Position numbers and translations under genes: made by a program. A model generated the notes under the pieces. It was not told the origin of the DNA. It searched no databases and saw only the letters and a list, made by a program, of their open reading frames with translations. Of a DNA stretch of 64,000 bases, positions 18,616-42,580 are shown one piece after another. This DNA comes from an uncultured bacterium. Its GTDB lineage: Bacteria; Verrucomicrobiota; Kiritimatiellia; RFP12; UBA1067. Within the stretch, counting starts at the first letter, position 1, and each line of letters opens with the position of its first letter. The DNA is taken from contig URIT01000003.1 in NCBI GenBank assembly GCA_900547945.1, forward strand, positions 1,406 to 65,405, written 5' to 3'.

Positions 18616-19328
18616 TCTCCCCGTGGCTCCTCCGGGTTCGTCCTCGTACGGGCGAACTTCGGGTTGTTTCCGGCAATCACGAGCGCGACCTCGCCCTTCA
18701 CCTTCTTGTCCGCGAATTCCCGCGCCAGATCGGAAAGGTAGCCGCGCGACACGCGCTCGTGCAGTTTCGTCAATTCGATGCACACGGCGGCCTCGCGGTC
18801 GCCCAGCACCTCGTAGGCGGCCGCCAGCGTGGGGCCGATGCGGAACGGGGACTCGTAGCAGACGAGCGTGTGTTCCCTGTCCTTGTCTTCGGCGAACCAG
18901 TTCCGGAGCGCGCCGGGTCCGCGCGGCGGAAAGCCGCGGAACGTGAAGGACGACGTGGAAAGGCCGCTCATCAGGAGCGCCACGTTCACGGCGCTCGCGC
19001 CGGGGATGACGTCGTAGGGGACGCCCTTCCGGGCACAGGTGCGGATCAGGCGGTAGCCCGGGTCGGAGATGCCGGGATAGCCGCCGTCCGAGCAGAGGAC
19101 AACCTCCGCGCCCGCCTCGACGGCCTCGACGATCCGCTCCGTCGTCCGTTCCTCGTTCCCCTGGCGGTAGGAGATCATCTCGGGGCGCGGCACGCCGAAG
19201 TGCGTGAGCAGCTGCCAGGTGCGGCGGGTGTCCTCGCAGGCGATGAGGGTGGCGGACTTGAAGGCCTCCAGCCCGCGCGGGGAAAGGTCGCCGAGGTTTC
19301 CGATCGGCGTCGCGACGACATGCAGCAT
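18612..19328 (-). CDS. rsmI: 16S rRNA (cytidine1402-2'-O)-methyltransferase
   Basis: 238 aa. MLHVVATPIGNLGDLSPRGLEAFKSATLIACEDTR...CSDGGYPGISDPG is the RsmI/tetrapyrrole-methylase signature. Confidence 0.92.
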   Translation of the reverse strand: MLHVVATPIGNLGDLSPRGLEAFKSATLIACEDTRRTWQLLTHFGVPRPEMISYRQGNEERTTERIVEAVEAGAEVVLCSDGGYPGISDPGYRLIRTCARKGVPYDVIPGASAVNVALLMSGLSTSSFTFRGFPPRGPGALRNWFAEDKDREHTLVCYESPFRIGPTLAAAYEVLGDREAAVCIELTKLHERVSRGYLSDLAREFADKKVKGEVALVIAGNNPKFARTRTNPEEPRGE

Positions 19329-19338: not shown

Positions 19339-19974
19339 CTACCACATCGCCGGCGGGATCTCGTCGTCCTGCCGCCCCTGCGCCTCGGCGTACTGGCGGC
19401 GGGCGAGGTCGATCTCGCGCAGGACGCGGCTCTGCTCGTCGCGCTTCGCCTGCAGTTCCGCCGCGCGCACGCGCCAGGCCGCGTCCGTGAAGGGATCGAC
19501 CTGCACGACGACCTCGTTGAGCTTCACGCCGGCCATGAGGGCGATCCACTGCATCGCGGCGAAGGCCTCCTCAAGCGAATCGAGCTTCAGCGTCACGCTG
19601 CCGGCGGAGAAGGCCGACACGACGTCGTCGGCGGGGTCCGCCTTCGCCATCCAGGGGAGATAGCCGCGCGCGTCCAGTTCGCGGACAAGGTCCGGGCGCG
19701 CCACGACGACCTCGCGCACCACGGCGGCCAGCACCTCCGGCCACGACGAAACCGTCGTCGTGCGGCCGAGCAGGTGGACGCGGAGCGGGCGGCGCGACAG
19801 GAAGTCGGCCGCCGTGCCGACGAGCGTCATCACGCGGTAGCGCGGCGAGGGGTGCATGTGCTGGAACCGGCGCGCCGTGCGGCTGAACGCCTTGAAATAC
19901 CGGTGCGGGTCGGCAAGCCACTCCCGCACGTCGCGGTCACGTGCCGCGAGGTCCGTCCGATCGTCCGTATGCAT
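19339..19974 (-). CDS. Hypothetical protein (211 aa)
   Basis: The start MHTDDRTDL at 19974 overlaps the upstream stop by 1 nt (TGATG). Composition looks normal, whereas the upstream 155 codons of the ORF are R/G-rich. I recognise no family. Confidence 0.6.
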   Translation of the reverse strand: MHTDDRTDLAARDRDVREWLADPHRYFKAFSRTARRFQHMHPSPRYRVMTLVGTAADFLSRRPLRVHLLGRTTTVSSWPEVLAAVVREVVVARPDLVRELDARGYLPWMAKADPADDVVSAFSAGSVTLKLDSLEEAFAAMQWIALMAGVKLNEVVVQVDPFTDAAWRVRAAELQAKRDEQSRVLREIDLARRQYAEAQGRQDDEIPPAMW

Positions 19975-21362
19975 CAGCGGCTCGCCTTCCAGGCCTCGGC
20001 GATCGTGTAGTACTTCACGAGCATGTTGGGCAGGTAGTCGGCGGGCTGCTCGCCCTTCCTCATCCACCCGAGGTACATGTTCATGACCTGGCTGAAGTGG
20101 GCCTCGTGGCCGATCTCGTACTTCTGCGGCACGAGCATCGTCCAGCCCTCGCCCTCGGCCTTGAAGGAGACGCCGGGATAGGACTTGTTGAATTCCGCGA
20201 CGGCGGCGGCGAGCGCCTTTTCGAGCGCGGCCTTGTCCTGCCCAGCGCGCGGCTTCACGTAGACGCGCGGCTTGTAGCCTTCGTCCTTGCCCTGGCGGAT
20301 GACCACCTCCGCCTTCGTGCCGCGCATGAGCGAGTAGTGCGTGTCGCCCGTGCCGGCGGGCGGCATGAAGTGCCATTCCACGGAGACCTTGGCGTGTACG
20401 CCCTTGAGCTGGTAGGTGAACGCGCCGTTCGCCTTGCACTGGAGGACGTTGTCCTTATCCACGGCCTTCTTCAGGAAGTCCGGCCATGCGTCGAGGCCCG
20501 TCGAGGTCTTGTAGTCCTGCGCGGTGATCGGCGTCGGCCACGTGCGCGCCTTGAGCATCTTCACGTCGGAGGTCTTGAGCGTCTGGCCGGGGAAGGCCTC
20601 CCACTGCACGAGGTCGACGAGGTGCGTCGTCACGTCGACGATCGCCTCGCCCTGCTGGTCGGTGTCGTAGTACCAGCCCGGACGCCGGAGCGGCTTGCCG
20701 TTCACGAGCTTGCAGAAGTGGTGGACGGAGATCTTCGTGATCGCGGGGTCGTCCGGCGTCCCCTTCTCCTGCTCGCCGTAGAGATCCTTCGCAGCCACGA
20801 GCGCGCGCTGGAGGATCGTCGTGATCTCGTTGCGCTCGGTCATGATGTCCGCGAAGTAAAGCCCCTTCTCGTCCGCCAGCTTCGCCGCCTCGCAGAGCTT
20901 CGCGTAGGCGTCCGGCGTAATGACCATCGGCTTGTCGGAGAGGACGTTGAACCCGGCGCGGATGGCTTCCAGGTAGTAGTCGCTCTTCTTGTCGTTCTTG
21001 CCCGCGAGGACGACGACGGCCCCCGCCTTGTCCGCCGCAAGCGCCTTCGCGAGGTAGTCGTCGCCCGTGTAGACGATCTCGTTCCAGGCGGTGGGGTCCT
21101 TCGCGCGCGCGTTGAACGCGGCGACGAGCTTCCGGTGCGCCTCGACGTCCGGCCCCTTCGGCGCGAACACGCGCACGTCCTTCGACACGCCCGCGTAGTT
21201 GCGGTTCAGCACGAGCGCGGCGTGGAAGTGGCCGGGGTCGAGCTCGACGAACGAAATGTCCCTCACCGGCTTGCGCGCGGCCGCCTTCGCGCCGCTCTTC
21301 CGGCAATCGCAGCAGCCCGCGACGAGCGCAGCCGCCATGCATCCGATCAAGATCCTCTTCAT
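19974..21362 (-). CDS. Lipoprotein, Gfo/Idh/MocA-like oxidoreductase with a putative oxidoreductase C-terminal domain
   Basis: Start MKRILIGCMAAALVAGC (lipobox) at 21362; 462 aa. Segments FVELDPGHFHAALV and LSDKPM are typical of this lipoprotein oxidoreductase family. Confidence 0.75.
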   Translation of the reverse strand: MKRILIGCMAAALVAGCCDCRKSGAKAAARKPVRDISFVELDPGHFHAALVLNRNYAGVSKDVRVFAPKGPDVEAHRKLVAAFNARAKDPTAWNEIVYTGDDYLAKALAADKAGAVVVLAGKNDKKSDYYLEAIRAGFNVLSDKPMVITPDAYAKLCEAAKLADEKGLYFADIMTERNEITTILQRALVAAKDLYGEQEKGTPDDPAITKISVHHFCKLVNGKPLRRPGWYYDTDQQGEAIVDVTTHLVDLVQWEAFPGQTLKTSDVKMLKARTWPTPITAQDYKTSTGLDAWPDFLKKAVDKDNVLQCKANGAFTYQLKGVHAKVSVEWHFMPPAGTGDTHYSLMRGTKAEVVIRQGKDEGYKPRVYVKPRAGQDKAALEKALAAAVAEFNKSYPGVSFKAEGEGWTMLVPQKYEIGHEAHFSQVMNMYLGWMRKGEQPADYLPNMLVKYYTIAEAWKASR

Positions 21363-21398
21363 GTGTCCCTTTTTGTCCTTTCCCTCTCGTTGGGCGTT

Positions 21399-21409
21399 AG
21401 TATAGCACA
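21399..21409 (-). promoter_or_regulatory. Extended -10 promoter TGTGCTATACT upstream of the oxidoreductase-rsmI-GH27 gene string
   Basis: The minus strand reads TGTGCTATACT 36 nt upstream of the ATG at 21362. The same 11-mer occurs at 5063..5073. Confidence 0.5.
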
Positions 21410-21426
21410 TTTGGTACGGCCCGCCG

Positions 21427-24400
21427 CTACTCCTGGATGAGGACGTTCTCGGCGGCGGAGACGTTGAGCTTGCCGGCGCGGTCGGGGTTGTCCTTCGCGC
21501 GCGGGCCGAGTTCGACCACGTTGTTGCGCCAGACGACGTTGCGGCCGCAGGGGAGGTCCAGCACGTACCCGCCCGGATTCACGAACCGGCACCCTTCGAC
21601 GAGCAGACCGCCGCAGACGAAGCCCTTGTCCACCTCGCCCACGTCCCAGTCCGTCGGCGTCACGCACACGGCCGAGATGCAGGGATCCTTCGGGTTGGAG
21701 ACGCACGTGTCCTCGAAGAGGCAGTTGCGCACGACGAGGTTCGTCGCACCCATGCCCTCGCACCAGAGGTCGCTGCGGTAGTCGGCGATGAAGCGCACGG
21801 GCACGCTGGCGGTCCGGCGGAAGACGCAGCCGTCGAGCGTGAGGTCGGAGGGCGAGAAGATGTTGCGCCAGCCGCCGTCCTCGAACACGCAGTCCTTCAT
21901 CGTCACGCGGTCCGTCCCGTAGGCGCGGTCCCACACGAGGAAGCACGGCCCCTTCTGCGGGGGGATGTCACGGTCGAGGTGGAGGCGGTTCCCGGCGACC
22001 CGGAGGAGCTTCGCGCGGAAGCCCGCCTCGCCGACCGGCGCGAAGTTCGGGAAGCGCAGCTCCAGGGTCGTCCCCGGCGCGGCGCGGAAGTAGTCGGCCC
22101 CGCGCCGGTTCACGATGTCGAGTACGCGGTCCGCCGCCCGCACGGCGATCGTGAAGCGGTCGTGGAAGTTCGACGTGTCGTCGTTGTTGAGCGACCAGCG
22201 GCAGTTGACGTACAGGCAGTCGCCCTTCGAGCGCGCGACGTGGTGGCCGTCCGAGACGGACGAGACGGGACGGCTGAAGAAGCGCGCGCCGGGGTACGCC
22301 GCCCGGAACGCCGCCTCCGTCGGCGGCTCGACGCGGAAGTTCTCCACGCGCCAGTGGTGCTGCGCCCCGTCCACCACCATCCCCATGCCGAAGCAGCTCC
22401 ACACGGCGACGTCCCGTACCGTGAGGTGCGCGTTGGCGTCGAGGTTGAGGCCGTTCTTCCCGTAGTAGCAGTGCTGGAGGCGGTAGAGGCCGTTCGTCTC
22501 GAACTGGCGCACGCGCGCGAGGTTCCCCTTCGCCGAGAAGCGGAAGCCCGTCGCGGGGTTCTGGTTGCGCCCCTCCATCTGGATGCCGGGCCAGAGGCGC
22601 AGGACGTTCGGCTTCACCCATGCGTTCTTCGCGCCGAAGTGCCCCTCGGTCTGGCCGAACGAGAACCCCCTCCCCCTGCGGAAGCGCGTGCGGCTTTCGT
22701 CCATCGCCGTGATCTTCTGGACGGGGACCGGCTCGGGGTACTTGGGGTGGCGTTCGTAGTCCACGAACGCGAGGTCGACGAAGGCGCGTTCGGGCCGCGC
22801 GGCGTCCTCGTGGCGGTCGACGACGCGCACGAAGGCGGCGAGCGGATCCGCCTCCCAGTCCCAGTCCATCGTGAAGTTCCCAACCTCGGTCCTCGTGCAG
22901 CGCTGCACGAGGACGTTCCCCTTGTCGAGGATGAGTTCGCTCTGCGGCTGGCAGCGGTACTCGGCCGGGCGGCGGAAGACGAGCACGGCGCCCTTCCCGT
23001 CGAACGTGAAGTCCGTGAAATCGCGGATCACGATTCCCGGCTCGTCGAAGCAGCGGTAGGTGCCCGGCGCGAGTTCCAGACGGCTCGCCTTCACGCGGCG
23101 GCACGCCGCCAGCGCGCGGGCGATCGCCGCCGCGTTCGTGGTCGAGGCCGTGGACAGGCCGAAGTCCACCGCCTTCAGCGTCCGCCCGCCCGTGGCGCGC
23201 GGCCGCTCCACCACGACCTCCGGGCACCCCGTCGCGACGGGCACGGCGGCGGGGAGGCCGGACGGCAGCAGCGTCTTCCGGTCCGACCGGCCCGGCTCGG
23301 ACACGAGCCGGAACGCCTCGGCCGTCTTCACCCAGCCGAAGTCGACGGGGGCGGACGGCGGGAAGAGCCGTTCCCAGAGGTTCGTGTCGGGGCACGCATA
23401 CGGCGCGTAGGACCCGTCTGCGGCAAAGGTCCCCTGGCGGTAGCGGTTGTAGAACGCCGACGTGCCGAGGAGCCGGAGGCGCGCGTCGGCGTCCGCCGCG
23501 TCCACCCCGGCGGGCGAGACGGCGACGTGCAGGACGCGCGGCCCCTTCACGCCCGGCGGACAGGCGAACGCCGTCTCCAGCGGCGCCGCGAGCGTCGTCT
23601 CGACGCGCTTCACGAGGATGGCCGCCTCCTTCGGACTGTACTCGCGGAAGAGCGGGTCCAGGAGCCAGTAGGTGACCGCGAAGCGGTTCGTCGGCAGCGT
23701 CTGCCCGGCGAGAAGCTTCCACGTCGTCGTCACGCGCCCGTCCCCGTGGTACGCCGTCTCGGGCGCGACGGGCAGGCGGTTGCGGGCCGTGTCGTCGCCG
23801 CGCGGGTTGACGTAGCGCACGACCCTCTTCCCCTCGGGATAGGCAGACTCCTCGACGACGCGCCCGCCCCGGCGGCGGATGGCCGCGTAGCGCCCCGTCC
23901 GCGCGTTGAACGCCACGAAGCCGTACTGCGCGAGCGGCACCGCGCCCAGGGCCGCGTCCCCCGTCTCGCACGCCCAGTCGGCGACGCCCCGGTTCACGAA
24001 GACCTCCATGCCCGTCGACCACGAGACGTGCAGACGGCGCGGATCGCCGCCCGCGAACGAGACGCGCGAGACGGTGGCCGTGCCGAGTTCGCGCGCGATG
24101 TGCTGCGCCAGCCAGTATTTGCGCACGACCTGGCGGAGGCAGCGGTCCACGTCGAGCGGTTCGAGGAGGCCGGCCTCGGCCTTGTAGGCGTCGCGGTTGT
24201 AGCAGTCCGCCATGAGGGCGTGTCCGTTCAGGATCTCGCAGGAGAGGTAGTCGTCCGAATCGATGCCGTGGCAGTCCGCCCCGCGCGCGCCCTCGAAGCG
24301 GGCGCTGTACCCGACGCCGTGGAGGGCCATGCGGTCGTGGTAGACGAGCGGGAACCAGGGCGTCTTCTCCTGGACCGTGCCCGGCACCTTCATCCAGCGG

Positions 24401-25731
24401 TAGGCGCCGGGCTCGTCCGCCAGGCACATCCACTGGCAGTCGCCGCCGTCGAGGTGCCCGAGCATGTAGTCGCAGGGCGCCTCGCTCGAAACGAAGCCGT
24501 CCCGCCCGCAGAGGGCGCGCGCCGCGTCGAACATCCGCGCGTTCGCGCGCATGTTTCCGAGGAGGGAATGGACGCGCCCCGCCCGGTCGCGGCACGTTTC
24601 CGCGAAATTCGCGCCCGAGCCCGTCACGTCGATGAACACCGTTCCGGGACGGAAGCCGTCCGCATGCATCTGCTCCTGCTGGTAGATGATCGACGCCACC
24701 CCCTCCTGCGGCAGCAGCCGGTAGCTCTGCTCCTTGTGGGGCGGGTTGAGCCAGGCCTTGACGGGCTCCAGGGCGCCGGTTCGGGGATTGGGCTGATGGC
24801 AGATCTTGTCCCAGGAGAACCAGGGCGAATCGGGATAGCAGTCGATCACGTTCAGGTGGACGCCGAACGCCCAGCCGCGCGCGCGCGCCACGGCCTCGGC
24901 GGCCTTCAGCTCCGCCGCCGTGCCGAACGTCGGCGCGGGCGGGTAGACCTCGGGCAGATGGCGGTCGAAGCCGTGGCGCTGCCAGCAGTGCGCGTAGAAG
25001 AGGAGATCGTCCTTCAGGCCATAGTCGTCCGCCGCGCGGCGGATCAGCTCGCCGAACTCCCGGAACGTGCCGTTCCAGCTGTCCACGCAGAAGCGCCCCG
25101 CCTTCCGCGCGAAGCCCGCCGGGGCGGGAACCGTGACGTGCCGGCGGTAGCGGAGCGCGCAGTCGAACGCCCCCGCCGTGCCCACGACGAACGTCAGTTT
25201 CGTCGGCTGCGCGACGCGGAAGCCGAAGGCCCCCTTCTCGGGCGCGTGGTAGAGGCTTTCGGGCGGCGCCTCGGTGGCGACGACGAGGGCGAGGCCGTTC
25301 GGGAACTCGAAGCCCGCGAAGCGGCAGGCGTTCTGGTGGCCGTTGAACGGCAGCGCGAACGCGCCGGGATCCTTCACGTAGTAGCCGTAGCCGAAGTAGA
25401 GCGCGGACGGCTTCTCGGAGCAGCGCCCGAACGCGATCCGCCCGAAATCGCGTTCATCCCCGGCGATCTCCGCGACAAACGCATCCCCTTCGGCCCGGAA
25501 CGAGACGGCCGGCACGGCGCCGGACGCGGAAGCCGTCCGCTCGAACGGCGCGAAGGCGAGCGTCTTCCCGCCCGCCGAGAACGCGAAGCCCCCCTTTCCG
25601 TCCAGCGTGACCGTTCCGCCAGTCGCCCCCTCCAGCTGGAAGGACGATGCGGCCCACACGGGCACAACCGCCCACAACGCCGCCGCAACCACGCCAATAA
25701 ACAGACGGACACCTTTCACGTTCATGCGCAT
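21427..25731 (-). CDS. Large secreted multidomain protein (1434 aa), putative glycoside hydrolase region plus right-handed beta-helix region
   Basis: Start MRMNVKGVRLFIGVVAAALWAVVPVWA (signal peptide) at 25731, preceded by GGAGGG. Composition is normal throughout. The C-terminal half has beta-helix-like repeats. The exact family is not recognised. Confidence 0.7.
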   Translation of the reverse strand: MRMNVKGVRLFIGVVAAALWAVVPVWAASSFQLEGATGGTVTLDGKGGFAFSAGGKTLAFAPFERTASASGAVPAVSFRAEGDAFVAEIAGDERDFGRIAFGRCSEKPSALYFGYGYYVKDPGAFALPFNGHQNACRFAGFEFPNGLALVVATEAPPESLYHAPEKGAFGFRVAQPTKLTFVVGTAGAFDCALRYRRHVTVPAPAGFARKAGRFCVDSWNGTFREFGELIRRAADDYGLKDDLLFYAHCWQRHGFDRHLPEVYPPAPTFGTAAELKAAEAVARARGWAFGVHLNVIDCYPDSPWFSWDKICHQPNPRTGALEPVKAWLNPPHKEQSYRLLPQEGVASIIYQQEQMHADGFRPGTVFIDVTGSGANFAETCRDRAGRVHSLLGNMRANARMFDAARALCGRDGFVSSEAPCDYMLGHLDGGDCQWMCLADEPGAYRWMKVPGTVQEKTPWFPLVYHDRMALHGVGYSARFEGARGADCHGIDSDDYLSCEILNGHALMADCYNRDAYKAEAGLLEPLDVDRCLRQVVRKYWLAQHIARELGTATVSRVSFAGGDPRRLHVSWSTGMEVFVNRGVADWACETGDAALGAVPLAQYGFVAFNARTGRYAAIRRRGGRVVEESAYPEGKRVVRYVNPRGDDTARNRLPVAPETAYHGDGRVTTTWKLLAGQTLPTNRFAVTYWLLDPLFREYSPKEAAILVKRVETTLAAPLETAFACPPGVKGPRVLHVAVSPAGVDAADADARLRLLGTSAFYNRYRQGTFAADGSYAPYACPDTNLWERLFPPSAPVDFGWVKTAEAFRLVSEPGRSDRKTLLPSGLPAAVPVATGCPEVVVERPRATGGRTLKAVDFGLSTASTTNAAAIARALAACRRVKASRLELAPGTYRCFDEPGIVIRDFTDFTFDGKGAVLVFRRPAEYRCQPQSELILDKGNVLVQRCTRTEVGNFTMDWDWEADPLAAFVRVVDRHEDAARPERAFVDLAFVDYERHPKYPEPVPVQKITAMDESRTRFRRGRGFSFGQTEGHFGAKNAWVKPNVLRLWPGIQMEGRNQNPATGFRFSAKGNLARVRQFETNGLYRLQHCYYGKNGLNLDANAHLTVRDVAVWSCFGMGMVVDGAQHHWRVENFRVEPPTEAAFRAAYPGARFFSRPVSSVSDGHHVARSKGDCLYVNCRWSLNNDDTSNFHDRFTIAVRAADRVLDIVNRRGADYFRAAPGTTLELRFPNFAPVGEAGFRAKLLRVAGNRLHLDRDIPPQKGPCFLVWDRAYGTDRVTMKDCVFEDGGWRNIFSPSDLTLDGCVFRRTASVPVRFIADYRSDLWCEGMGATNLVVRNCLFEDTCVSNPKDPCISAVCVTPTDWDVGEVDKGFVCGGLLVEGCRFVNPGGYVLDLPCGRNVVWRNNVVELGPRAKDNPDRAGKLNVSAAENVLIQE

Positions 25732-25842
25732 GTTCCCTCCGTTCACCTTCAGCGGCCACAGCTGGTCCGTCTTGTCGATGTACATACACCCGAACTTGAC
25801 GAGTTCGGAGAACGTGTAGATGTCGGTTGCGGGCTTTCCCAT
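25732..25842 (-). pseudogene. 37-codon N-terminal stub of an AAA-ATPase-like (PF09820-type) gene, in frame with the downstream large protein
   Basis: MGKPATDIYTFSELVKFGCMYIDKTDQLWPL aligns with MERIATDTYSFERVREGGFVYVDKTAILKTL of the intact gene at 5118..6683. There is no stop before the MRMNVKG start of the next gene. Confidence 0.6.
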
Positions 25843-25849
25843 GCCGGAA

Positions 25850-25860
25850 ATTATAGCACA
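25850..25860 (-). promoter_or_regulatory. Extended -10 promoter TGTGCTATAAT, 7 nt upstream of the ATG at 25842 (leaderless candidate)
   Basis: The minus strand reads TGTGCTATAAT-TTCCGGC-ATG. Confidence 0.5.
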
Positions 25861-25968
25861 GTCGCCCCGTGCGCGGCAGGAAACGGCCACACGTGAAAAC
25901 GTGTCCCGCCCTCCCGGTCGCGCAGGAGCGGTGTCCCCTCCATCCGAACGTTTACGCACGGACATCCA

Positions 25969-28800
25969 TCATCTGATCGTGGGCTGGCAACCTTCACAGT
26001 CAGACGCATAGGATCCACCGGCGACAACGCTATCGCGCGTGTCGTATCCTGCGCGAATCCATTCCGCCGAAAACTTCACGCGGTAGGCGAGCTTCCCTTT
26101 GCCTTTCCTGTAGTCGTAGAAGTCGGCGAACAGCACGGCATCGTCCCCCGTTCCGCTCACCTGAAGGACGGACGAACCCGTGACCGAACGCCCCTCGATC
26201 TTTCCACTCGACCGAATCGTCCCGTTCCTGTTCACCGTGAACATGAGCGACGGCTTGGAGGGCGGCGGTTTACATCCAGGGCACACAAGGAATCCAGATC
26301 CAGCGTGTACAGACTCCGTGAGCGCACCGAACGTGCCGATCCTCGCCAGCTTCTCCACGACATCCGTCACGCCCGCACGTGCCAATGCCTGTGCCGTCCC
26401 GCCAGAAACGTTCCACTCGGCATCTTTCGTCCCGACCTTGCCCGACAACCGCGCCCTCCCGTCATTTCCAGGAGACATGTCCAATACCAGCTCACACCAA
26501 TTGCCGCGTTGGTCGCGCAGGTCGATCTGGACAAAATCGTCCGTACAGGCACACGAATAGCCCGAGAGCGAAGAGGTCTTCCCCGCCGACACGACCTTGA
26601 CGCCGATCTTGCCGTTCGACGCAATCGACACGGATACCGTGCCACTCACGTCGCCGAGATCATCCGCATCATCCGCGATCAGGTCTTCGCAGGGCGGCAG
26701 GTCTCCGCCGATGAAACCACGATACGTTCCGACGCATGCGGACGGGAAAGGCGCCACCGCAACCGTGAACGTGGCCTTCTCGATCCTGCGTCCGTTCCTG
26801 GCCGTCAGCACCACCGTATAGACGCCCGCCTTCGTCGGCGTCCCCCACAATGCGGCAGAAGAAGATTCCCGGTCCAGGACCAACCTCAAGCCCGCCGGTA
26901 ACCCGCTTGCCGACACCGTCCAGCCTTCTGCGAAGGAGAACTCGAATGGCGGCCGGCAGCAATTTGAATAATCGCCGACAGTAAAGGGATAGGCCCCTTC
27001 ATATTCAAGGCCGTCGAACACCCAGCTCCGCAGATTCGGCACGACAACGCGCATGCTCTTCGTTGCCGTCGCACCGGAAAGGTTCTTCGCCGTCAGCGTG
27101 ACAACACTCGTGCCGGGTTTCAGCTTCGCCATGTCAGGAACGACAAGCGACAACCCCTGCAATTTCACGCCGGGCGGCAATCCCCTTGCCGTCACCTTCG
27201 GCTGGGTCATGCTTTCGACCTCCACCGTCCGTTCGTCATATCGGGCATCCGTGTCAATGCGCCATTCATCGTCCACGCGGATGCCGATCGCCGCATCCTC
27301 GTCCTTCGTAACGAATTTCGCATAGACCGGCTTCGAGGCCGCTGCCGAGAAAACAAAGGACGCATTTGCCGCACGATAGTCGCGGCCCCCCTGGAATGGT
27401 TCCGTGCAGGCCGCGTCCGCATACCACCCGGCAAAATAGCAGCCGCGCGCAGGCCTGGCCGAAAGCCTGACCGCCGTACCCGACTTCTTCACGCCGCCAC
27501 CCAATACCGTACCGCGTCCGAGAGACGCCCCACCGACGGCAACCACCTGATACCGGCTGTCGGCATCACGGACAATCACCGTCTTGACCGTCTTGCGGCG
27601 CGCCGCATCCGTAAAGGTGATCCTGTACTTCCCCGGCTTTGTGGGCGTCCCCGCAAACACCTCGCAGATCCCTTCGGGACAGGGCACCTTCGCCTTCCAC
27701 TTCAATCCCGGAGGAAGCCCGGAAACCGACCTAGCAAGCGAATGCCAATCCTCAACGGCCTCAAACGGCTCGCCGACCCGCAGCGCATCGAGCGCATCCA
27801 GATCAACATGCCGGGAAAGCCCGATGTCGTCATAGTCCCCTTCCGAAGCGTCGCCGACGATCCAGCGCACCGTCGCCGACTGCTGATAGCCGTTCGCGTT
27901 CTTCGCCGAGCACGTCGCATAATAGACGCCCCTCCGCGTCGGGCGCCCCGAGAACTCCCGCGTCTGGGCATTGTACTTGATTCCCGCCGGAAGCCCCGAA
28001 ACGGAAACCGTCACGGGCGATCCCGACGACACGATAAAGCAATCCTCAAGATCGCGTTCGACCTCGACGCCGACATCCGCCGTCAACTTCCCACCCTCGG
28101 AAATGAGAAGCCAGTCGTCCCCGGGCCCCATGCTTTCACGCCAGATGGCACGCATCACAACCGTTCTGTCAATTTCCGTCCCGTCAGGTGAAATCATCAG
28201 CCACTTCGGCACATACCGGCTCAGATCGATCCGGGTTCCAGTTGGGTAGACGTGTTGGCCATCCTCCTCGACGATCCCGCTGCTCACCGACCAGCCTCCG
28301 AACAGGTTCCCTGGCTTCCTGAAGGCGCACAGCGGCAACGTATAATACAGAGAGGTCCCTTCCTTGACCGAAAAAGACTTGCCCGGCATCGTCCCCATAC
28401 CGCCGCCGGCATCAAAGACGATTTTCACCGGGAGTTCAACGGAGATTCCGTACATGGGTTTTAAAGGCTCCCCAATACCAGGTACATCACCAAGGTCCAC
28501 CCCTTCCAACGGATTGTCCGAAGCGGCGCCGGCCGTCGCCGCCAACACCATCATCGCACAGCTCGCGGCAACCTTCAGCGCATGGAATTTCCCGACCGCC
28601 GCACACGTTTCGCCCCCATCGGCGAGTTGCCGGTCAATCCTAGAGGCCCCCTCTTCATCCCCCTGCAGATGGAGGCAGACCCCCAGCAGGACCTTCGCGC
28701 GCGTGCTTCCCGCGTCGGCCTTAAGGTACTCCCGCAGGGCGGCCTCCGCTTCACGCAGATCCCCTGCGCGCATCATTTCCTTAATCGTGTTCAGCTTCAT
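25969..28800 (-). CDS. Membrane-anchored surface protein: N-terminal TPR-like helix pair, TM segment, Listeria-Bacteroides-type repeats and He_PIG/Ig-like repeats
   Basis: 943 aa. The N-terminus MKLNTIKEMMRAGDLREAEAALREYLKADAGSTRAKVLLGVCL is TPR-like; the TM segment is LKVAASCAMMVLAATAGAA. SGLPAGIKY, SGLPPGLKW, RGLPPGVKL and SGLPAGLRL recur, together with GTPTKPGKY and GTPTKAGVY. FGGWSV and YFAGWY motifs are present. Confidence 0.75.
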   Translation of the reverse strand: MKLNTIKEMMRAGDLREAEAALREYLKADAGSTRAKVLLGVCLHLQGDEEGASRIDRQLADGGETCAAVGKFHALKVAASCAMMVLAATAGAASDNPLEGVDLGDVPGIGEPLKPMYGISVELPVKIVFDAGGGMGTMPGKSFSVKEGTSLYYTLPLCAFRKPGNLFGGWSVSSGIVEEDGQHVYPTGTRIDLSRYVPKWLMISPDGTEIDRTVVMRAIWRESMGPGDDWLLISEGGKLTADVGVEVERDLEDCFIVSSGSPVTVSVSGLPAGIKYNAQTREFSGRPTRRGVYYATCSAKNANGYQQSATVRWIVGDASEGDYDDIGLSRHVDLDALDALRVGEPFEAVEDWHSLARSVSGLPPGLKWKAKVPCPEGICEVFAGTPTKPGKYRITFTDAARRKTVKTVIVRDADSRYQVVAVGGASLGRGTVLGGGVKKSGTAVRLSARPARGCYFAGWYADAACTEPFQGGRDYRAANASFVFSAAASKPVYAKFVTKDEDAAIGIRVDDEWRIDTDARYDERTVEVESMTQPKVTARGLPPGVKLQGLSLVVPDMAKLKPGTSVVTLTAKNLSGATATKSMRVVVPNLRSWVFDGLEYEGAYPFTVGDYSNCCRPPFEFSFAEGWTVSASGLPAGLRLVLDRESSSAALWGTPTKAGVYTVVLTARNGRRIEKATFTVAVAPFPSACVGTYRGFIGGDLPPCEDLIADDADDLGDVSGTVSVSIASNGKIGVKVVSAGKTSSLSGYSCACTDDFVQIDLRDQRGNWCELVLDMSPGNDGRARLSGKVGTKDAEWNVSGGTAQALARAGVTDVVEKLARIGTFGALTESVHAGSGFLVCPGCKPPPSKPSLMFTVNRNGTIRSSGKIEGRSVTGSSVLQVSGTGDDAVLFADFYDYRKGKGKLAYRVKFSAEWIRAGYDTRDSVVAGGSYASDCEGCQPTIR

Positions 28801-29881
28801 TTTCCGTTTCCTCCGTACTGGTTGACAACATGTCGTTTAAAATCTTCTCGGTCTCCACACGCCGCACGCAGAACAAGTTCTCGCCCAGCGTTCCCGTCGT
28901 ACTCAGCGCCGCCGCGCTGCACCCCGCCTTGCATTGCCGTCCGAACGGGCATTTCGCACACATGCCGGACAGCGCATGTTCCTTTTGCCGGAACGCATGG
29001 AACGACTCCGGATCTCGCCAAATCGCCTTGAGCGGACGCACGCGAAGATTCGCCTCGATGAAGTCGCTCCCGAGCGAAAGACAGGGCAGGACGTCGCCGT
29101 TCGCCCGTATGCCGATGACGTGCCGACCGGCCGGACATCCCGTCCAGACCTGATGCAGGAAACGGAGTTTCGGCGTCAGGGGGAAATAGCCGAAATCGTC
29201 CATCGTCCCGATCTTCAGCCGCCCGTTCAGGTCGTAAAGGCAATGCGTCACGCGCTCGGCGTACCAGGCGAACTGATCGGGTGACAAGAGAAGCGAGTCG
29301 TCAAACCGTTCGCCTGCGCGATGCGCGACCTGGATCTGCCAGAGGATGGGCGTATCCTTGAAGGTCTCGGCAAAAAGATCGAAGTCACCGAGGTTCCGGG
29401 ACGTGAACGTCGTGATCGCCGTCACCTGTCGGTGTCCGTCCGCCACAAGATCGTCCAACAGCCTGCGGCACGTCGCATAGCCGTCCACGCCGCGCGTACG
29501 GCGATAGCTCTCCGGCGTCGCGCCGTCCAGGCTCACGCCGACGGCACGGGGGGCAAGCGCCTTGAACTGCGCGCGAACCGCCTCCGTCACCAGAAGGCCG
29601 TTCGTGATCAGCTGGAGCTCCATGTCGACCGCCTTGACGGAGGCGGCGACTTCGTACCAGTCGGGACGCAACAGGAATTCACCGCCCAGAAGCGTAACCG
29701 TCCGGCAGCCGAGCGCCGCGAGATCCCGAATCACCTGTCGGAGTTCGCCTAGGGACATTTCATCCGCACGGGCACGGCCCGACGCCGAGGCACAGTGCGG
29801 GCAACGCAGATTACAGCGGTTCGTCACTTCAACGACCGCCTGCCGCAGAGAATGCGCCATTTGTCTTCCATTTTTCTCCAT
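28781..29881 (-). CDS. Radical SAM / SPASM-domain maturase-like enzyme
   Basis: CNLRCPHC (CxxxCxxC) sits near the N-terminus, followed by LLGGEFLLRPD. The C-terminal SPASM-like cysteines read CPAGRH...NGDVLPC...CAKCPFGRQCKAGCSAA. ATG at 29881 (the track start at 29887 is GTG). The 3' end overlaps the next gene by 20 nt. Confidence 0.88.
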   Translation of the reverse strand: MEKNGRQMAHSLRQAVVEVTNRCNLRCPHCASASGRARADEMSLGELRQVIRDLAALGCRTVTLLGGEFLLRPDWYEVAASVKAVDMELQLITNGLLVTEAVRAQFKALAPRAVGVSLDGATPESYRRTRGVDGYATCRRLLDDLVADGHRQVTAITTFTSRNLGDFDLFAETFKDTPILWQIQVAHRAGERFDDSLLLSPDQFAWYAERVTHCLYDLNGRLKIGTMDDFGYFPLTPKLRFLHQVWTGCPAGRHVIGIRANGDVLPCLSLGSDFIEANLRVRPLKAIWRDPESFHAFRQKEHALSGMCAKCPFGRQCKAGCSAAALSTTGTLGENLFCVRRVETEKILNDMLSTSTEETENEAEHD

Positions 29882-29923
29882 GGTCACCTACCGTCACTCC
29901 GTTTGCACGCCAAGAAAGATCCG

Positions 29924-31714
29924 TCAATTCAGGTCGCAGCCAAAACGCTTTGCTACGTCCAGCACAACCGCCCCATACTTCCCCGAACCCGGAACGAGGG
30001 AGAAGCCCACGCCCGCGCCACGCAGACGCTCGACGACCGGCACCAGGACCTGGTGTTCGTACCGCTCGATCGACCAGTCGTTCCGTTTCGCACACGCTGA
30101 AAGCGAGATCTTGAGATACTTCGGCCGCTCGCCGAGGACACGGTCCAATCGGGACAAGATCTGTTCGGGCGATCCCTTCTGCGGCTGGAAGAGGGAAACG
30201 TTCTGCACGAGGGGCTGCGCCAAATGCGGTTTCGGCAAAGACGGCGTCGGGACGCTCTCCACCTTAGTGCCAGTGGTCTCCGTAGGCGCCGTGCCGCGCG
30301 AAACGGCCACGACATGGCGTGGGGCAGGCGCCGTATTGCTCGACGCGGGCGCCACATGAGTCGAATGCGCCACGTTACTTGAACAGGATACAACACTACT
30401 CGGACTGGACCCCACATTTCCCGAAGCGGGAACAGGGCTCGTGGACAGAAGTGTTTCCACCGGGACCTTGCCCTCGGCAGGCCCTACGGCGGCAACCGTT
30501 TTCCACACAACCGGCAGACGAAGGTACGGTTTCAGGAGGATGACCGCCCCCGTTGCCACGATGAGCAGCAACAACCCCGCGCAAGCCACGCGCAACGTGT
30601 GGCGTCGACGTGGATCATCCGGGCATCCAGAGCCGCGTGCCGTTTTGCCCTTGTCCCCCTCAACCGGTGGCACGGCCTTCTCCACAGTCCGCGTCGCCGT
30701 TTCGGGCTGGGAGGACGCAAGGATTTCGTCAATCGCGGCAACGATTTTATCGCCGGAGGACACTCTTTTCTCAAGGCTCTTCTCGCACATCCTCGCCAAC
30801 AGCGAAACGACGCCATCCGGAACGTCCAGCTCTTGTTCCCGTTGTGCCGGGGGAGAACCGCCGCCGACTTCCCCTGGGACGTCCCGTTTCCCCTCGGCGC
30901 AGAACGTCCGGGTCTCCATTGTCGGCAGCGTGACCGCCGTCCGCCCCTCCTCCGCACATGCGCAGACTGGCTTGAACGTGCGGATGTCGGGAAGCGGACG
31001 GGGCGAAAGAAGGAAGGACGTCACTTCGACGATGTTCGTGGCGGGATAGGGGCGGCTGCCGGCCAGCATCTCGAAGAAGACGATGCCGAGGCTCCAGATG
31101 TCGGCCCGGGCATCGACCGACGATGCGTCCCGCACCTGTTCGGGGGACATGTAGGCGGGCGTGCCGAAGACCTGCGCGGGGAGGGTCTTGAGCATGTTTT
31201 CGGCATCGTCCTGGACGGCCTTGGCGATGCCGAAATCCACCAACTTGGCAACGCCATCCGAAGTGAACAGGATGTTCTCCGGCTTGATGTCGCGATGGAC
31301 CGAATGGCGCTTCTCGACCGCCGCCAGCGCCAGGGCGACCTGGCGTACGATTCCCAACGCCTCGCGCCAGGGGATCCGCCCCCGGCACCGCATGCGGTCC
31401 CGCAGCGTCCCGCCGCCAAGATACTCCATGACGATGTAGTAAAACCCCGACGTCCCTTCGCATCCCGCGTCGTAGACCTCGACGAGATGCGGGCTGTGCA
31501 GCCCGCAGACGAGCGCGGCCTCCTGGTTGAAACGGTCGACGAACTCGCGGTTTCGCTCGGCGATCGCCGGATCGAGGACCTTCAACGCGCGTTCGACGCG
31601 CAGCGTGGGATTCCGCACGAGGTAGACCACCCCCATCCCACCCTTGCTGAGGATGCGCGTGATGGTCCAGTTCCCGAACCGGTCCCCTTCCTTCGGCATG
31701 CGTGAAACGTCCAT
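29924..31714 (-). CDS. Membrane Ser/Thr protein kinase (Hanks type) with an extracytoplasmic C-terminal domain of unknown family
   Basis: GGMGVVYLV (P-loop), ALK, HRDIKPENILF, VDFGIA and GTPAYMSPEQ. The TM segment is LRVACAGLLLLIVATGAVILL, followed by about 240 aa with an S/P/T-rich linker. Confidence 0.93.
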   Translation of the reverse strand: MDVSRMPKEGDRFGNWTITRILSKGGMGVVYLVRNPTLRVERALKVLDPAIAERNREFVDRFNQEAALVCGLHSPHLVEVYDAGCEGTSGFYYIVMEYLGGGTLRDRMRCRGRIPWREALGIVRQVALALAAVEKRHSVHRDIKPENILFTSDGVAKLVDFGIAKAVQDDAENMLKTLPAQVFGTPAYMSPEQVRDASSVDARADIWSLGIVFFEMLAGSRPYPATNIVEVTSFLLSPRPLPDIRTFKPVCACAEEGRTAVTLPTMETRTFCAEGKRDVPGEVGGGSPPAQREQELDVPDGVVSLLARMCEKSLEKRVSSGDKIVAAIDEILASSQPETATRTVEKAVPPVEGDKGKTARGSGCPDDPRRRHTLRVACAGLLLLIVATGAVILLKPYLRLPVVWKTVAAVGPAEGKVPVETLLSTSPVPASGNVGSSPSSVVSCSSNVAHSTHVAPASSNTAPAPRHVVAVSRGTAPTETTGTKVESVPTPSLPKPHLAQPLVQNVSLFQPQKGSPEQILSRLDRVLGERPKYLKISLSACAKRNDWSIERYEHQVLVPVVERLRGAGVGFSLVPGSGKYGAVVLDVAKRFGCDLN

Positions 31715-31773
31715 GTGCCCCTTCCCCCCTTCACCACCCGAAAACGCCCTTGACGCGCGCCTTCAGAAGCTCC

Positions 31774-32835
31774 TTACAGTTCAATGCCCGCAATCCGGGC
31801 CTCCTCGACAAAAGACGGCGCCTCGCCCGCCTCAAACCCTCCGCAGACGGTTCCGTCGGGCGCGATGGACGCCGTCTTCCAGCGATGCAGCTCGCGCACG
31901 CGGTATTCCCCCCGTTCCAGGGGAAGGACCTCGGCGATGGACACGACCTTGCGCGAACCGTCCGAGAGACGCGCCGTGTGGACGACCGCGCCGATGGCAC
32001 TCGCCACCTGCGCGCGCAGGGCCGAGAGCGGGATGTCGATGCCGCTCAGCAGGGCGCACGTCTCGATGCGGCTCAGGGCGTCAAGGGGCGAATTCGCGTG
32101 GATCGTGCTCATTGAGCCCGCATGGCCGGTGTTGAGCGCCTGCAGCAGGTCGAGCGCTTCGCCGCCCCGGATTTCGCCGATCACGATGCGATCGGGGCGC
32201 AGGCGCAGGGCCGAGTGGATCAGGTCGCGGATCGTCACCTCGCCCTGCCCGTTCTTGTCCGCCTTGCGCGTCTCGAACGGCACGATGTGCCGCTGCTGGA
32301 GCTGGAGCTCGCTCGCGTCCTCGATCACGAGCACGCGCTCGTTGTCCGGGATGAAGGAGCTGAGCGCGTTCAGGACGGACGTCTTGCCCGAGCTCGTCGC
32401 GCCCGAGACGATCACATTCTTGTGCAGGAGGACGAGCGCGCGGATGAGCCTCCGCGCCCGTTCGTCCACGCTGCCGAACGCCTGCATCCTCTCGATGGTC
32501 AGCGTGTCCTTCTTGAACTTGCGGATGGCGATGACCGTGCCGAGGCGCGACAGGGGCGGAATGACGGCGTGGACGCGGCTGCCGTCCGGGAGGCGCGCGT
32601 CCAGGCGCGGGTGCATCTCGTCCAGGATGCGCCCGACGGACTTCGCGATGTTCGCCGCCGCCGCCTTGAGCGCGGGCTCGCTCACGAACCGCGCCGGCAC
32701 CTCCTCCAGTCGGCCCTTCCGCTCGACATAGACCCGTTCGGGCCCGTTGATCAGGATCTCGCTGACGTCGTCGTCCGCCAGATGCTCCGCCACCGGCTGC
32801 AGGAACAGCGTCAGGAATGAATTGTTGTCTTGCAT
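31774..32835 (-). CDS. CpaF/TadA/VirB11-family secretion ATPase, short form without an FHA domain
   Basis: 353 aa. VSEILINGPERVYVE, Walker A GATSSGKTS, Walker B LVIEDASEL, RLRPDRIVIGEIRGGEA and GHAGSMSTIHANS. Confidence 0.9.
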   Translation of the reverse strand: MQDNNSFLTLFLQPVAEHLADDDVSEILINGPERVYVERKGRLEEVPARFVSEPALKAAAANIAKSVGRILDEMHPRLDARLPDGSRVHAVIPPLSRLGTVIAIRKFKKDTLTIERMQAFGSVDERARRLIRALVLLHKNVIVSGATSSGKTSVLNALSSFIPDNERVLVIEDASELQLQQRHIVPFETRKADKNGQGEVTIRDLIHSALRLRPDRIVIGEIRGGEALDLLQALNTGHAGSMSTIHANSPLDALSRIETCALLSGIDIPLSALRAQVASAIGAVVHTARLSDGSRKVVSIAEVLPLERGEYRVRELHRWKTASIAPDGTVCGGFEAGEAPSFVEEARIAGIEL

Positions 32836-33599
32836 GTTCTATTTCCTCTGTCTTGAATGCGACGTCCAATCATCATCATGCCCCCCACCAGGACAAACAC
32901 CCCGCCGAGGAACTGCCCGGGCGAGACGGGAACCCCCTCCAGAATCGTCCCCCGGCTGTCGCCGCGCAGCAGCTCAAGCGCGATGCGCCCCGCCCCGCAT
33001 GCGACAAGCGAGAAGCCCGCGCGGTAGCCCGCCTTGACTGCGGTCATGGCGAGCGTAAACGCGACGAGCAGCCACCCGGCTTCATAGAGCTGGACCGGGC
33101 AGAGCGGAACGGATCCGTACGCCGCGCAGGGTGGGGAGCCCGCCGGATAGACGACACCCCAGGGCGCCCGGACGGGGATGCCGTAGCAGCATCCCCCCAG
33201 GAAGCAGCCCAAGCGGCCGACGGCCTGAGCGGGCAGGCAGCCTGGCACGAAGAGTTCAAGGAGAAGCAGGACGGGAATGCCCGCCATCCTCCCGAAGGCG
33301 ATCCAGAACAGCATGCATCCCAACAGCCATCCGAAGTAGTTCAGACCCCGGCCAAAGGGATGGGCGAAGACCTGACGGACGCCGTCATGGAACAGCACGT
33401 CCGTCACCGCCCCGGACACGACACCGAAGAGCAGGCAGAGCGGCAGGGCCGGGAGGAGGCGGTCGTTCACGGTGGCGACGGGCAATCCCATGCGCCGCGC
33501 ACGGTAAAGGAACAAGAGCACCAGAATCATCAGCCCGGCGCCGATGCAAAGCGGGAACGAGCCGATTTTTCCAAAGGGCAGGCTGATGAAAGGATGCAT
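32811..33599 (-). CDS. Prolipoprotein diacylglyceryl transferase (Lgt) family membrane protein
   Basis: Start MHPFISLPFGKIGSFP at 33599; a 262-aa polytopic protein with the Lgt-type motif GRLGCFLGGCCYG. Its 3' end overlaps the ATPase start by 25 nt. Confidence 0.7.
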   Translation of the reverse strand: MHPFISLPFGKIGSFPLCIGAGLMILVLLFLYRARRMGLPVATVNDRLLPALPLCLLFGVVSGAVTDVLFHDGVRQVFAHPFGRGLNYFGWLLGCMLFWIAFGRMAGIPVLLLLELFVPGCLPAQAVGRLGCFLGGCCYGIPVRAPWGVVYPAGSPPCAAYGSVPLCPVQLYEAGWLLVAFTLAMTAVKAGYRAGFSLVACGAGRIALELLRGDSRGTILEGVPVSPGQFLGGVFVLVGGMMMIGRRIQDRGNRTCKTTIHS

Positions 33600-33627
33600 G
33601 TTGCCGCATTCCCCGCGATGCCGTGCC

Positions 33628-34011
33628 TTACGCCACGCGCTTCGTGTTGGCAATCGAAAGCGCCCCCGCGATGATGTACAGGATCGCGCTGATCAACGCC
33701 AGCGGGTTGAGGATGATCACGTTGACAATCCCCATGAGAAGCGCGAGCAGAATCACGAGCACACCCGTCAGCGTCGACCACTTCGACTTGCAGAAGAAGC
33801 AGAGCGCAAAGACGACAAGGCCGAGAATGCTCGGCAGGAAGAGCGAAGAGCCGCCCCTCCCATTCGTCATCTCCTGCATGGCGGACGCGCAGATCACATT
33901 GCACAGCAGGCTTGGAATCCACAGCACGAAGGCGATGATGGCCAATATGACCGGCGCGAAGGTCTTGCGGTGCTCGATGATGACAACCTTGTTGTCGTTG
34001 TCGGTATTCAT
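33628..34011 (-). CDS. Small integral membrane protein (127 aa, about 4 TM segments), unknown family
   Basis: Strong SD AAAGGAGAA before the ATG at 34011. Hydrophobic segments include FAPVILAIIAFVLWIPSLLC, LPSILGLVVFALCFFC, LTGVLVILLALLMGIVNVII and ALISAILYIIAGAL. Confidence 0.7.
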   Translation of the reverse strand: MNTDNDNKVVIIEHRKTFAPVILAIIAFVLWIPSLLCNVICASAMQEMTNGRGGSSLFLPSILGLVVFALCFFCKSKWSTLTGVLVILLALLMGIVNVIILNPLALISAILYIIAGALSIANTKRVA

Positions 34012-42315: not shown

Positions 42316-42338
42316 GTGTTGTTCTCCTTTTCGTATGA

Positions 42339-42367: not shown

Positions 42368-42580
42368 TCAGGGGATTGGCAGGGCGATGCCGGACTGCAC
42401 CCGCTGGAACATCGCCTGGATCCCCTTCCCGACCGTCCCGGTCCATTCGTTCTTCGACGGGTCGAAGATCTCCTGCTGCCAGAACAGGACGAGCGGCACG
42501 GCGATGGCCAGGTTGACGACGACATACTCCATCAGCACGGAGCCGCGCGTTCCGCAGAGGCGCCTGATTCCGTCTTTCAT
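42368..42580 (-). CDS. Flp-like minor pilin (70 aa)
   Basis: MKDGIRRLCGTRG/SVLMEYVVVNLAIAVPLVLFW. The ATG at 42580 overlaps the upstream stop as ATGA. Confidence 0.7.
   Translation of the reverse strand: MKDGIRRLCGTRGSVLMEYVVVNLAIAVPLVLFWQQEIFDPSKNEWTGTVGKGIQAMFQRVQSGIALPIP

Follow-up and report, generated by a model that had tools for sequence, protein, structure and literature searches.

We analysed a 64,000-nucleotide (nt) stretch of contig URIT01000003.1 (hereafter the window) from an uncultured bacterium of the Kiritimatiellia, where a gene for a radical S-adenosylmethionine (rSAM) enzyme with a SPASM domain is located in a Tad-type pilus locus and had appeared, in an initial annotation, to lack a precursor peptide. 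The comparison of homologous loci gives good support to the conclusion that this enzyme is not an orphan but the maturase in a conserved module of two genes. The cognate partner is very probably the N-terminal module of the protein encoded downstream, which comprises a TPR-like domain, then an export or anchor helix and then a disordered linker with [K/R/L/M]-Tyr-[Gly/Ala/Ser] motifs; with the partner placed there, the puzzle of the missing precursor would be resolved. The reading that we favour, at about an even chance, is that of a splicease-like maturase of an exported protein, which would modify Met116-Tyr117-Gly118 of the partner before export and use the TPR-like domain as a built-in leader. 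Taken singly, the linker tyrosine has a somewhat better than even chance of being the modification site, and for tyramine excision as the reaction the balance, struck by analogy, is roughly equal; these judgements, like that on the partner, are rough and not independent of each other.

The pairing was examined with a profile of the partner region, which was built and then searched against 90 loci of the enzyme family. An open reading frame (ORF) with the partner N-domain adjoined the rSAM gene in 42 of the 44 loci (some of them duplicates) in which 700 nt or more flanked the rSAM unit on each side, mostly on the same strand and less than 100 nt away, and cut-off partner copies were present at the contig ends of two further loci (L096 and L146). 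When the look-up was reversed, the partners P0128, P0129, P0133 (with P0134 on the same contig) and P0142 were all found directly upstream of rSAM genes. The genes outside the cassette differed between loci, and the sole constant companion of the enzyme across the loci compared was a gene encoding a homologous N-terminal region of about 90 residues. The N-terminus of the window partner matched the partner-domain profile at 3.6e-25, and the window contains no second partner domain and no second rSAM gene. Partners range in size from 158 aa to 2114 aa (the latter a Flg_new protein in L007); their N-domain could be aligned across 16 divergent members, and its Gly40 and Cys42 are nearly invariant. 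The partner family had 63 representatives at E ≤ 1e-30, its size being only roughly known because below about 1e-30 the profile drifts into generic multi-TPR proteins. NCBIfam and Pfam offered no curated name for the partner, only weak TPR matches (TPR_16/TPR_19 in Pfam). The supposition of the initial annotation that the substrate might be a full-length protein of the locus is supported as likely, namely for the downstream TPR/Ig protein, given the conserved pairing with its N-terminus. The Cys-containing C-terminus of this protein, proposed at the same time as a target, is not what is conserved: the conserved element is the N-terminus, with the TPR-like domain, the helix and the Met-Tyr-Gly linker. 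A gene for a CPBP/Rce1-like intramembrane protease was located beside the rSAM gene in L106 (1801-2511) and L087 (5137-5901), and L106 is one of the two loci without a detectable partner domain.

The rSAM gene is real and conserved, since 452 homologues were found at E ≤ 1e-10 and copies that are 98-100% identical occur on independent metagenome contigs. The family, here called rSAM-B, is unnamed; its members with at least 42% identity came without exception from metagenome-assembled genomes (MAGs) assigned to Kiritimatiellae, Victivallales, Phycisphaerae, Polyangiaceae and other Myxococcota, or Desulfuromonadaceae, and after these the identity drops to 41% or less. The ORF extends over 28781..29887(-), with in-frame starts at 29887 (GTG) and 29881 (ATG). 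Translation, Pfam (Radical_SAM, PF04055, 1.9e-21; SPASM, PF13186, 2.9e-10) and alignments all agreed with the CxxxCxxC cluster motif and the C-terminal SPASM cysteine set that had been noticed before. C23, C27 and C30 are invariant in a 14-sequence alignment and at least nearly invariant in a 53-sequence alignment, and the seven SPASM cysteines (C249-x12-G-x4-C267; C308-x2-C311-x5-C317-x3-C321; C338), invariant or nearly so across the 53 homologues, fit the pattern CX9-15GX4C ... CX2CX5CX3C ... C. With both the cluster motif and the seven-cysteine pattern, the enzyme belongs to the Radical SAM/SPASM superfamily. The spacing reported earlier was also correct, with 42 nt between the end of the kinase ORF (29924) and the rSAM ATG, and with the rSAM stop codon (28781-28783) lying 20 nt inside the next gene, an overlap that would couple the two genes translationally; the partner gene has a Shine-Dalgarno sequence, GGAGGA, at 28809-28814. 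A relaxed ORF scan (at least 10 codons, both strands) of the gaps between 25.9 and 32.9 kb upheld the statement that no precursor-like small ORF is present there, for the only ORF recovered has 12 codons and lies on the + strand (31715-31753).

Features of the rSAM-partner module and the adjoining kinase gene in the window
Feature	Position	Strand	Basis
rSAM/SPASM enzyme of the rSAM-B family, 366 aa from ATG	28781..29881	-	Pfam, AlphaFold2 model, homologues
CX3CX2C motif CNLRCPHC, residues 23-30, for the SAM-binding [4Fe-4S] cluster	29792..29815	-	Translation
SPASM domain, 7 conserved Cys for auxiliary clusters	28868..29137	-	Pfam, alignments
Overlap of rSAM stop (28781-28783) and partner ATG (28800), 20 nt	28781..28800	-	Sequence
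Partner and likely substrate, 943-aa exported Flg_new/He_PIG surface protein	25969..28800	-	Pfam, profile
TPR-like four-helix N-domain, residues 3-61 (~60 aa), proposed cytoplasmic docking or leader domain	28618..28794	-	AlphaFold2, homology across all partners
Hydrophobic helix, residues 66-92, signal-anchor or cleavable export signal (…ATAGA/AS)	28525..28605	-	AlphaFold2
Met116-Tyr117-Gly118, proposed to be modified (spliced), in the disordered linker next to the membrane	28447..28455	-	Sequence, orthologue alignment
Membrane Ser/Thr kinase upstream of rSAM, a recurrent but not universal neighbour	29924..31714	-	Pfam Pkinase, transmembrane segment ~375-395

The AlphaFold2 model of the window partner places the N-domain helices at residues 3-11, 15-28, 33-45 and 49-61 with a predicted local distance difference test score (pLDDT) above 90, and predicts disorder after the hydrophobic helix, the only hydrophobic segment of the 943 residues. 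Across the family the N-domain precedes export signals of three kinds: a lipobox (Myxococcota, Phycisphaerae), an AxA-type signal-anchor (Kiritimatiellae) and an Flp prepilin site (L102); as far as sequence can tell, it behaves like a leader. At L095 (6996-8405), just downstream of the rSAM gene, an FHA domain is fused ahead of a partner-like TPR domain, which implies that the TPR-like domain would be cytoplasmic. The window partner has a single Tyr-Gly in its 943 residues where 3.3 would be expected, and in the Kiritimatiellae orthologues [L/M/V]YG is aligned right after the hydrophobic helix and ahead of the first Flg_new domain.

Short tyrosine motifs follow the hydrophobic helix and are strongly enriched in the partner tails. 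The pattern [KRLM]-Y-[GAS]-[GAIVP] occurred 82 times, in 44 of 53 non-redundant 100-residue tails, against 4.4 expected, a count reached in none of 2000 shuffles and inflated by the relatedness of the sequences; it recurs over very divergent subfamilies. Loci with rSAM-B as the only enzyme (B-only; PVC bacteria, including the window) have LYGGP, LYAGP, KYGAP, KYAAP or [L/M/V]YG[I/V/A/G]. The so-called AB cassettes of Myxococcota, Phycisphaerae and Desulfuromonadaceae encode a second rSAM/SPASM enzyme (rSAM-A, about 390 aa) between the partner and rSAM-B; their partners are 160-320 aa long and contain one to four copies of H[K/R]YS[G/A]GV[Y], and in most of them the hydrophobic helix ends with a lipobox Cys. 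A literature search for the repeat strings (YSGGVY and others) found no paper. Compact AB cassettes, in which a small lipoprotein-like partner is followed by rSAM-A and then rSAM-B amid unrelated flanking genes, were seen in L001, L003, L015-L017, L087, L088, L117, L120, L121, L128, L133, L135, L136, L171 and L172, with two tandem partners in L087. The idea that the second rSAM enzyme is tied to the second Tyr of YSGGVY failed, since L123 is B-only with HRYSGGV and L133 is an AB cassette without the second Tyr. Two partners (5453-5980 and 7086-7604) flank the rSAM gene of L102, whose product is 66% identical to the window enzyme. Both consist of the TPR-like N-domain fused to an Flp-pilin signal, RKSG/AVLMEYVVLGVLVVAAVV (prepilin site G/AVLMEY), followed by LYGP and LYAGP motifs; the segment is 68% identical over 34 residues to the Flp pilin of the window, and by its sequence the L102 partner resembles a pilin preceded by a long TPR-like leader.

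Spliceases excise tyramine at XYG, where the native X is Met or Leu (PMC9811515; see also PMC11414181), and MYG and LYG sites have been spliced experimentally with a mass change of -135.06 Da (PMC11626197). Because X-Tyr-Gly is the tyramine-splicease site, tyramine excision would be the most likely reaction at the window site. The latter, PMYGISVELP, can be set beside 'MYGVVFPWD' of PlpA3 (core AVAAMYGVVFPWD) and the engineered splice tag PIRPGYGLPI (PMC10533398, supplement Table S3), and the product of the gene adjacent to the window enzyme carries an X-Tyr-Gly, as is characteristic of spliceases. What the motif suggests is a chemistry at tyrosine that is most likely splicease-like, and not a thioether. 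Non-cyanobacterial types of spliceases do without a Y/RRE protein (RRE, RiPP recognition element, RiPPs being peptides that are made on the ribosome and modified after translation), and in the modelled type II Rha system a helix of the precursor leader replaces it on the enzyme (PMC11414181). No Y-like (PqqD-like) gene was found at the window locus, and the partner has a confidently predicted helical N-domain. The enzyme itself (AlphaFold2, pLDDT 91.8) has no N-terminal RRE domain, since the rSAM barrel of the model begins at residue ~14.

The more distant relatives of the enzyme also have Tyr-Gly proteins as neighbours. For all outgroup rSAM enzymes tested (31-41% identity to the window enzyme) TIGR04103, which we take for the PlpX class, and TIGR03913 were the clear top two models with 184-237 bits, as they are also the two best NCBIfam models for the window enzyme, and these outgroup enzymes adjoin YG proteins that have other leaders or none: an Acidobacteria protein with 'LRYGVILP', 'PMYGVALPP' and 'MRYGISIP' (compare PMYGISVELP of the window), Clostridia proteins with 'VYAPPEYF' twice, archaeal peptides with '…HYGTISI', and one protein with a helix, a transmembrane segment and 'TLYGALGP'. 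As Tyr-Gly occurs in outgroup neighbours whose N-domains differ or are absent, the motif tracks the enzyme clade and not the N-domain, which favours the linker tyrosine as the target. Melainabacteria-type loci (L039 9278-9968, L040 95-385, L043 6098-6493, L044 9603-9968) encode small secreted peptides that end with …[VI]TKYGV[YV]FPDD… ('…VTKYGVYFPDD', 'ITKYGVVFPDD') beside an rSAM gene whose product scores ~237 bits with TIGR04103; their putative core looks almost the same as 'MYGVVFPWD' of PlpA3, and their leader resembles a Sec signal. With the Melainabacteria enzyme as query, a search gave unnamed relatives only. The nearest outgroup rSAM enzymes (L022, L024, L026-L028, L031, L042, L151, L152 and L155; 36-41% identity; from Chloroflexota, Thorarchaeota and other lineages) form pairs with a class-I-methyltransferase-like gene, the product of which begins with MKLN-x-GCG or a near variant of it (MRLN/MRLH), and L031 has two rSAM genes with '…HYGTISI' peptides upstream.

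If the enzyme acts as we propose, the TPR-like domain of about 60 residues in the nascent 943-aa protein would dock the RRE-less enzyme in the cytoplasm, as a RiPP leader would do, and the enzyme would then act on the disordered linker just past the export helix, at Met116-Tyr117-Gly118. A tyramine equivalent would be excised, leaving an electrophilic alpha-keto-beta-amino acid in the backbone. The protein would afterwards be exported via Sec, with the hydrophobic helix serving as the anchor or as a cleaved signal. The gene pairing, the domain architecture and the conserved motif behind this scheme were observed, whereas the role of the partner as substrate, Tyr117 as the site and the splicing chemistry are inferred.

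Compared with the described spliceases (PlpX/PcpX of type I and the binary type II enzymes RhaX/RcsX/RasX, in the types of Scott et al. 2022), the window enzyme is alike in combining rSAM and SPASM domains and in having an adjacent product with X-Tyr-Gly, where X is Met or Leu, followed by a hydrophobic residue (window PMYGISV, PlpA3 AMYGVVF, splice tag GYGLPI). Like the binary spliceases, to which a leader helix of the precursor binds, it has no Y/RRE protein, and protein-sized substrates are known to be tolerated by spliceases. It differs in that the leader is a TPR-like domain plus an export or anchor helix and not Nif11/NHLP, that the substrate candidate is a 943-aa surface protein (elsewhere a lipoprotein, the 2114-aa Flg_new protein or an Flp pilin), that many family members have Tyr-Ala or Tyr-Ser, that some cassettes carry two rSAM enzymes, and that the enzyme lies far below the TIGR04103 cutoff. 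Nif11/NHLP (N11P) precursors similarly have a leader of protein-domain size (~60-90 aa) in front of short, sometimes repeated cores. However, that leader has an unrelated fold, whereas the leader of the window partner is TPR-like and is followed by a hydrophobic export helix instead of a Gly-Gly cleavage site. The anaerobic sulfatase-maturating enzymes (anSMEs) and QhpD are likewise RRE-less rSAM/SPASM enzymes that act on a protein destined for export. Their target motifs (Cys/Ser-x-Pro-x-Arg) and products (Cys-Asp/Glu thioethers) are different, the sequence similarity is weak, and no sulfatase or quinohemoprotein amine dehydrogenase (QHNDH) genes are present here. Bufferins and other precursors that are modified by MNIOs and have Sec signal peptides (PMC12452194) are also modified in the cytoplasm while carrying an export signal, some of them being lipoproteins or long proteins, and share with the window system the problem of avoiding export before modification, but they depend on another enzyme superfamily (an MNIO with a DUF2063 partner), are modified at Cys and have no extra N-terminal domain before the signal peptide.

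Several observations weigh against a splicease-like maturase. None of the 18,950 NCBIfam families searched reached its cutoff with the window enzyme, the best scores being 137 bits for TIGR03913, 134.5 for TIGR04103, 131 for MftC and 120 for AhbD. TIGR04103 is a narrow equivalog model of the cyanobacterial type, which we take to represent the PlpX class by equating it with IPR026482. The family into which PlpX has been placed is IPR026482 (PMC11002830). Second-best as it is, the TIGR04103 score stays far under the curated cutoff of 725 and barely exceeds that of MftC; by itself, the enzyme sequence does not put the window enzyme among the spliceases. The motif statistics carry the inflation mentioned above. 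Moreover, many partners have Tyr-Ala or Tyr-Ser (YAGP, YAAP, H[KR]YSGGV) in place of Tyr-Gly, and those of L095, L097 and L124 have no clear motif, so the chemistry may be different at least in these members. Because the motif lies on the far side of the export helix, the modification must precede export. Finally, the FHA fusion of L095 suggests that the N-domain may serve stably in signalling within the cytoplasm and not be a leader that is discarded.

Membership in other established enzyme classes was not supported. MftC (TIGR03962) was rejected because its score was below the cutoff of 265, no MftA- or MftB-like genes were present, and the GVY of the AB-type repeats is internal and not C-terminal. 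PqqE (TIGR02109) reached 78.9 bits against a cutoff of 381, and there were no pqq genes among the neighbours scanned. A sactipeptide or ranthipeptide synthase was rejected on the grounds that the AlphaFold2 model has no N-terminal extension, the gaps contain no small ORF and the scores are far below the cutoffs. A link to tetrapyrroles, considered because of an AhbD/NirJ-like pair with a TP_methylase gene (18612-19328), was dropped since the TP_methylase gene is RsmI. Foldseek gave PqqE, SuiB, SkfB, CteB, anSME and ChlB similar scores at 15-20% identity and thereby no discrimination between chemistries; the predicted structure is that of a generic peptide- or protein-modifying SPASM fold.

The alternative that survives best, unlikely as we consider it, keeps the partner and the tyrosine and changes the radical chemistry: Tyr117 could, for instance, be crosslinked through a C-C or C-O bond to a residue nearby (as PqqE or RrrB would do), or undergo an MftC-like reaction, an epimerisation or a hydroxylation. 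The residue before Tyr is mostly K, R, L or M, and rSAM/SPASM enzymes are known that join the gamma-carbons of Glu or Arg to Tyr (PMC9389541). Many motifs have a second aromatic residue 3-5 positions on (YSGGVY, YAGPEY, YGGPDY, YAPPEYF), the Tyr-Ala and Tyr-Ser variants are unlike the canonical XYG, MftC scores nearly as high as TIGR04103, and PqqE and SuiB are the top structural neighbours. However, the window site and its orthologues show [M/L]-Y-G in its canonical form and then a hydrophobic residue, a pattern also seen in PlpA3 and the splice tag; there is no second aromatic residue near the window site, and the structural neighbours are of low identity and non-discriminating.

Somewhat less probable still is that the partner is no substrate but a membrane tether or regulator, with the enzyme acting elsewhere, be it on the N-domain's Cys42, a different protein, a small molecule or a lipid. 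The near-invariance of Gly40 and Cys42, which exceeds that of any linker motif, would agree with this, as would the few partners that lack a clear Tyr motif, and the FHA fusion together with recurrent kinase, FHA and PP2C neighbours suggests signalling. The enzyme has only seven SPASM cysteines, a count from which an open cluster coordination site may follow. These points are opposed by the two to five motif copies in low-complexity tails, which are typical of multi-core substrates, and by the YG motif that distant rSAM relatives keep despite different or absent N-domains.

That the enzyme crosslinks the Cys-containing C-terminus of the partner, the Cys-rich TadG-like protein or a pilin tail of the Tad locus, as the initial annotation had considered, is very improbable. 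The rSAM gene does belong to a Tad-type pilus locus, L102 has the partner module joined to an Flp-type pilin, and a TadA/VirB11-like ATPase 83% identical to the window copy is encoded near the rSAM gene in L095 and L105. However, tblastn searches with TadB, TadC, TadG, both TadE-like proteins and the prepilin peptidase of the window gave matches only on contigs of the same organism (L090, L092), and in other genomes TadG, like the other Tad genes, is no companion of the enzyme family. Of the partner, residues 1 to ~220 alone recur with the enzyme, and the C-terminal region does not. Known sactisynthases have an N-terminal RRE and a small Cys-rich precursor, whereas the window enzyme is RRE-less and the gaps contain no small ORF for a Cys-rich precursor. 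A modified pilus component is not supported for the window, where the Flp pilin has neither the N-domain module nor Tyr-Gly, yet it is not absurd in view of L102. The weakest alternative, an anSME with a sulfatase substrate elsewhere, shares the fold class (TM-score ~0.7) and the lack of an RRE and is scarcely credible: the NCBIfam assignment that the initial annotation had named as a check left TIGR03942 outside the top 25 matches, the family profile matched anSME among PDB sequences at 3e-9 as against 1e-20 for SkfB and 1e-17 for PqqE (CteB and SuiB also ranked above it), no sulfatase was found among the neighbours scanned, and the conserved neighbour is a TPR-like or YG protein.

Kinase genes adjoin the rSAM gene also in L011, L012, L131, L124, L095 and L147, and in the Victivallales loci L011 and L012 genes for FHA-FHA, PP2C, pseudokinase and FHA-kinase proteins are the direct upstream neighbours of the partner-rSAM pair. 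Genes for kinases, FHA and PP2C proteins recur beside the pair in Victivallales and in the window, and these neighbours together with the L095 fusion hint at a signalling role. The extracytoplasmic C-terminal tail of the window kinase contains GSGKYGAVVLD (29963-29980, -), its sole Tyr-Gly, which is probably there by chance. The Tad locus of the window (42577-50120, -) is unusually rich in FHA domains, with an FHA-fused TadA ATPase (48285-50120) and FHA proteins at 45017-46504 and 42577-45015, and this combination of FHA domains and a Ser/Thr kinase suggests phospho-regulation. A second TadA/VirB11-like ATPase is encoded at 31774-32835 (-); its ~83% identical counterparts on the Kiritimatiellae-type contigs L095 (11239-12297) and L105 (4116-4340) lie a few kb from the rSAM-partner pair. 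The Tad locus also includes a divergent paralogue of Lgt, the prolipoprotein diacylglyceryl transferase (32811-33653, -; 50 bits against an NCBIfam cutoff of 119), and the Flp-type pilin ORF (41998-42318, -), which has the prepilin site …DTAG/AVMMEYVVLGVLIVAAVV… and no Pfam match. Downstream of the partner, a gene at 21427-25965 (-) has a product of 1512 aa that contains 42 Cys, shows a signal-peptide-like segment ~80 residues in and has no Pfam or NCBIfam match; as the gene starts only 3 nt past the partner stop codon, it is probably co-transcribed with the partner gene. The two ORFs at 19339-21342 (-; 366 and 295 aa) are Arg/Gly-rich and of low complexity, without family matches, and the true gene of this region probably uses a different frame or strand (19941-21440, +, or 19974-21410, -).

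A wider proposal, which we put forward only tentatively, is that PVC bacteria and Myxococcota have a hitherto undescribed export-coupled maturation system for proteins, in which a TPR-like leader placed before Sec signal-anchor, lipoprotein or Flp prepilin signals recruits a splicease-like rSAM enzyme, so that adhesin-like surface proteins, lipoproteins and even pilins would be exported with a membrane-proximal, electrophilic alpha-ketoamide or a different modification derived from tyrosine. Control of the system may lie with the Ser/Thr kinase, FHA and PP2C proteins encoded nearby. The leader type, not described before, and the exported protein substrates would be its new elements, the known ones being rSAM/SPASM maturases, probably spliceases. 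Such a system would provide natural protein substrates in native hosts for spliceases, so far mainly known from heterologous work, and a TPR-like domain ahead of an export signal would be a new type of leader. Even with another chemistry, an apparent orphan rSAM enzyme has become half of a directly testable candidate enzyme-substrate pair with a defined 9-nt target site. If Tyr117 is spliced, this would be a natural installation of a backbone beta-amino acid (ketoamide) in a large exported surface protein of a gut or rumen bacterium of the Kiritimatiellae, with related cases in lipoproteins and an Flp pilin, and its possible roles would include protease resistance, protease trapping and covalent chemistry at the cell surface.

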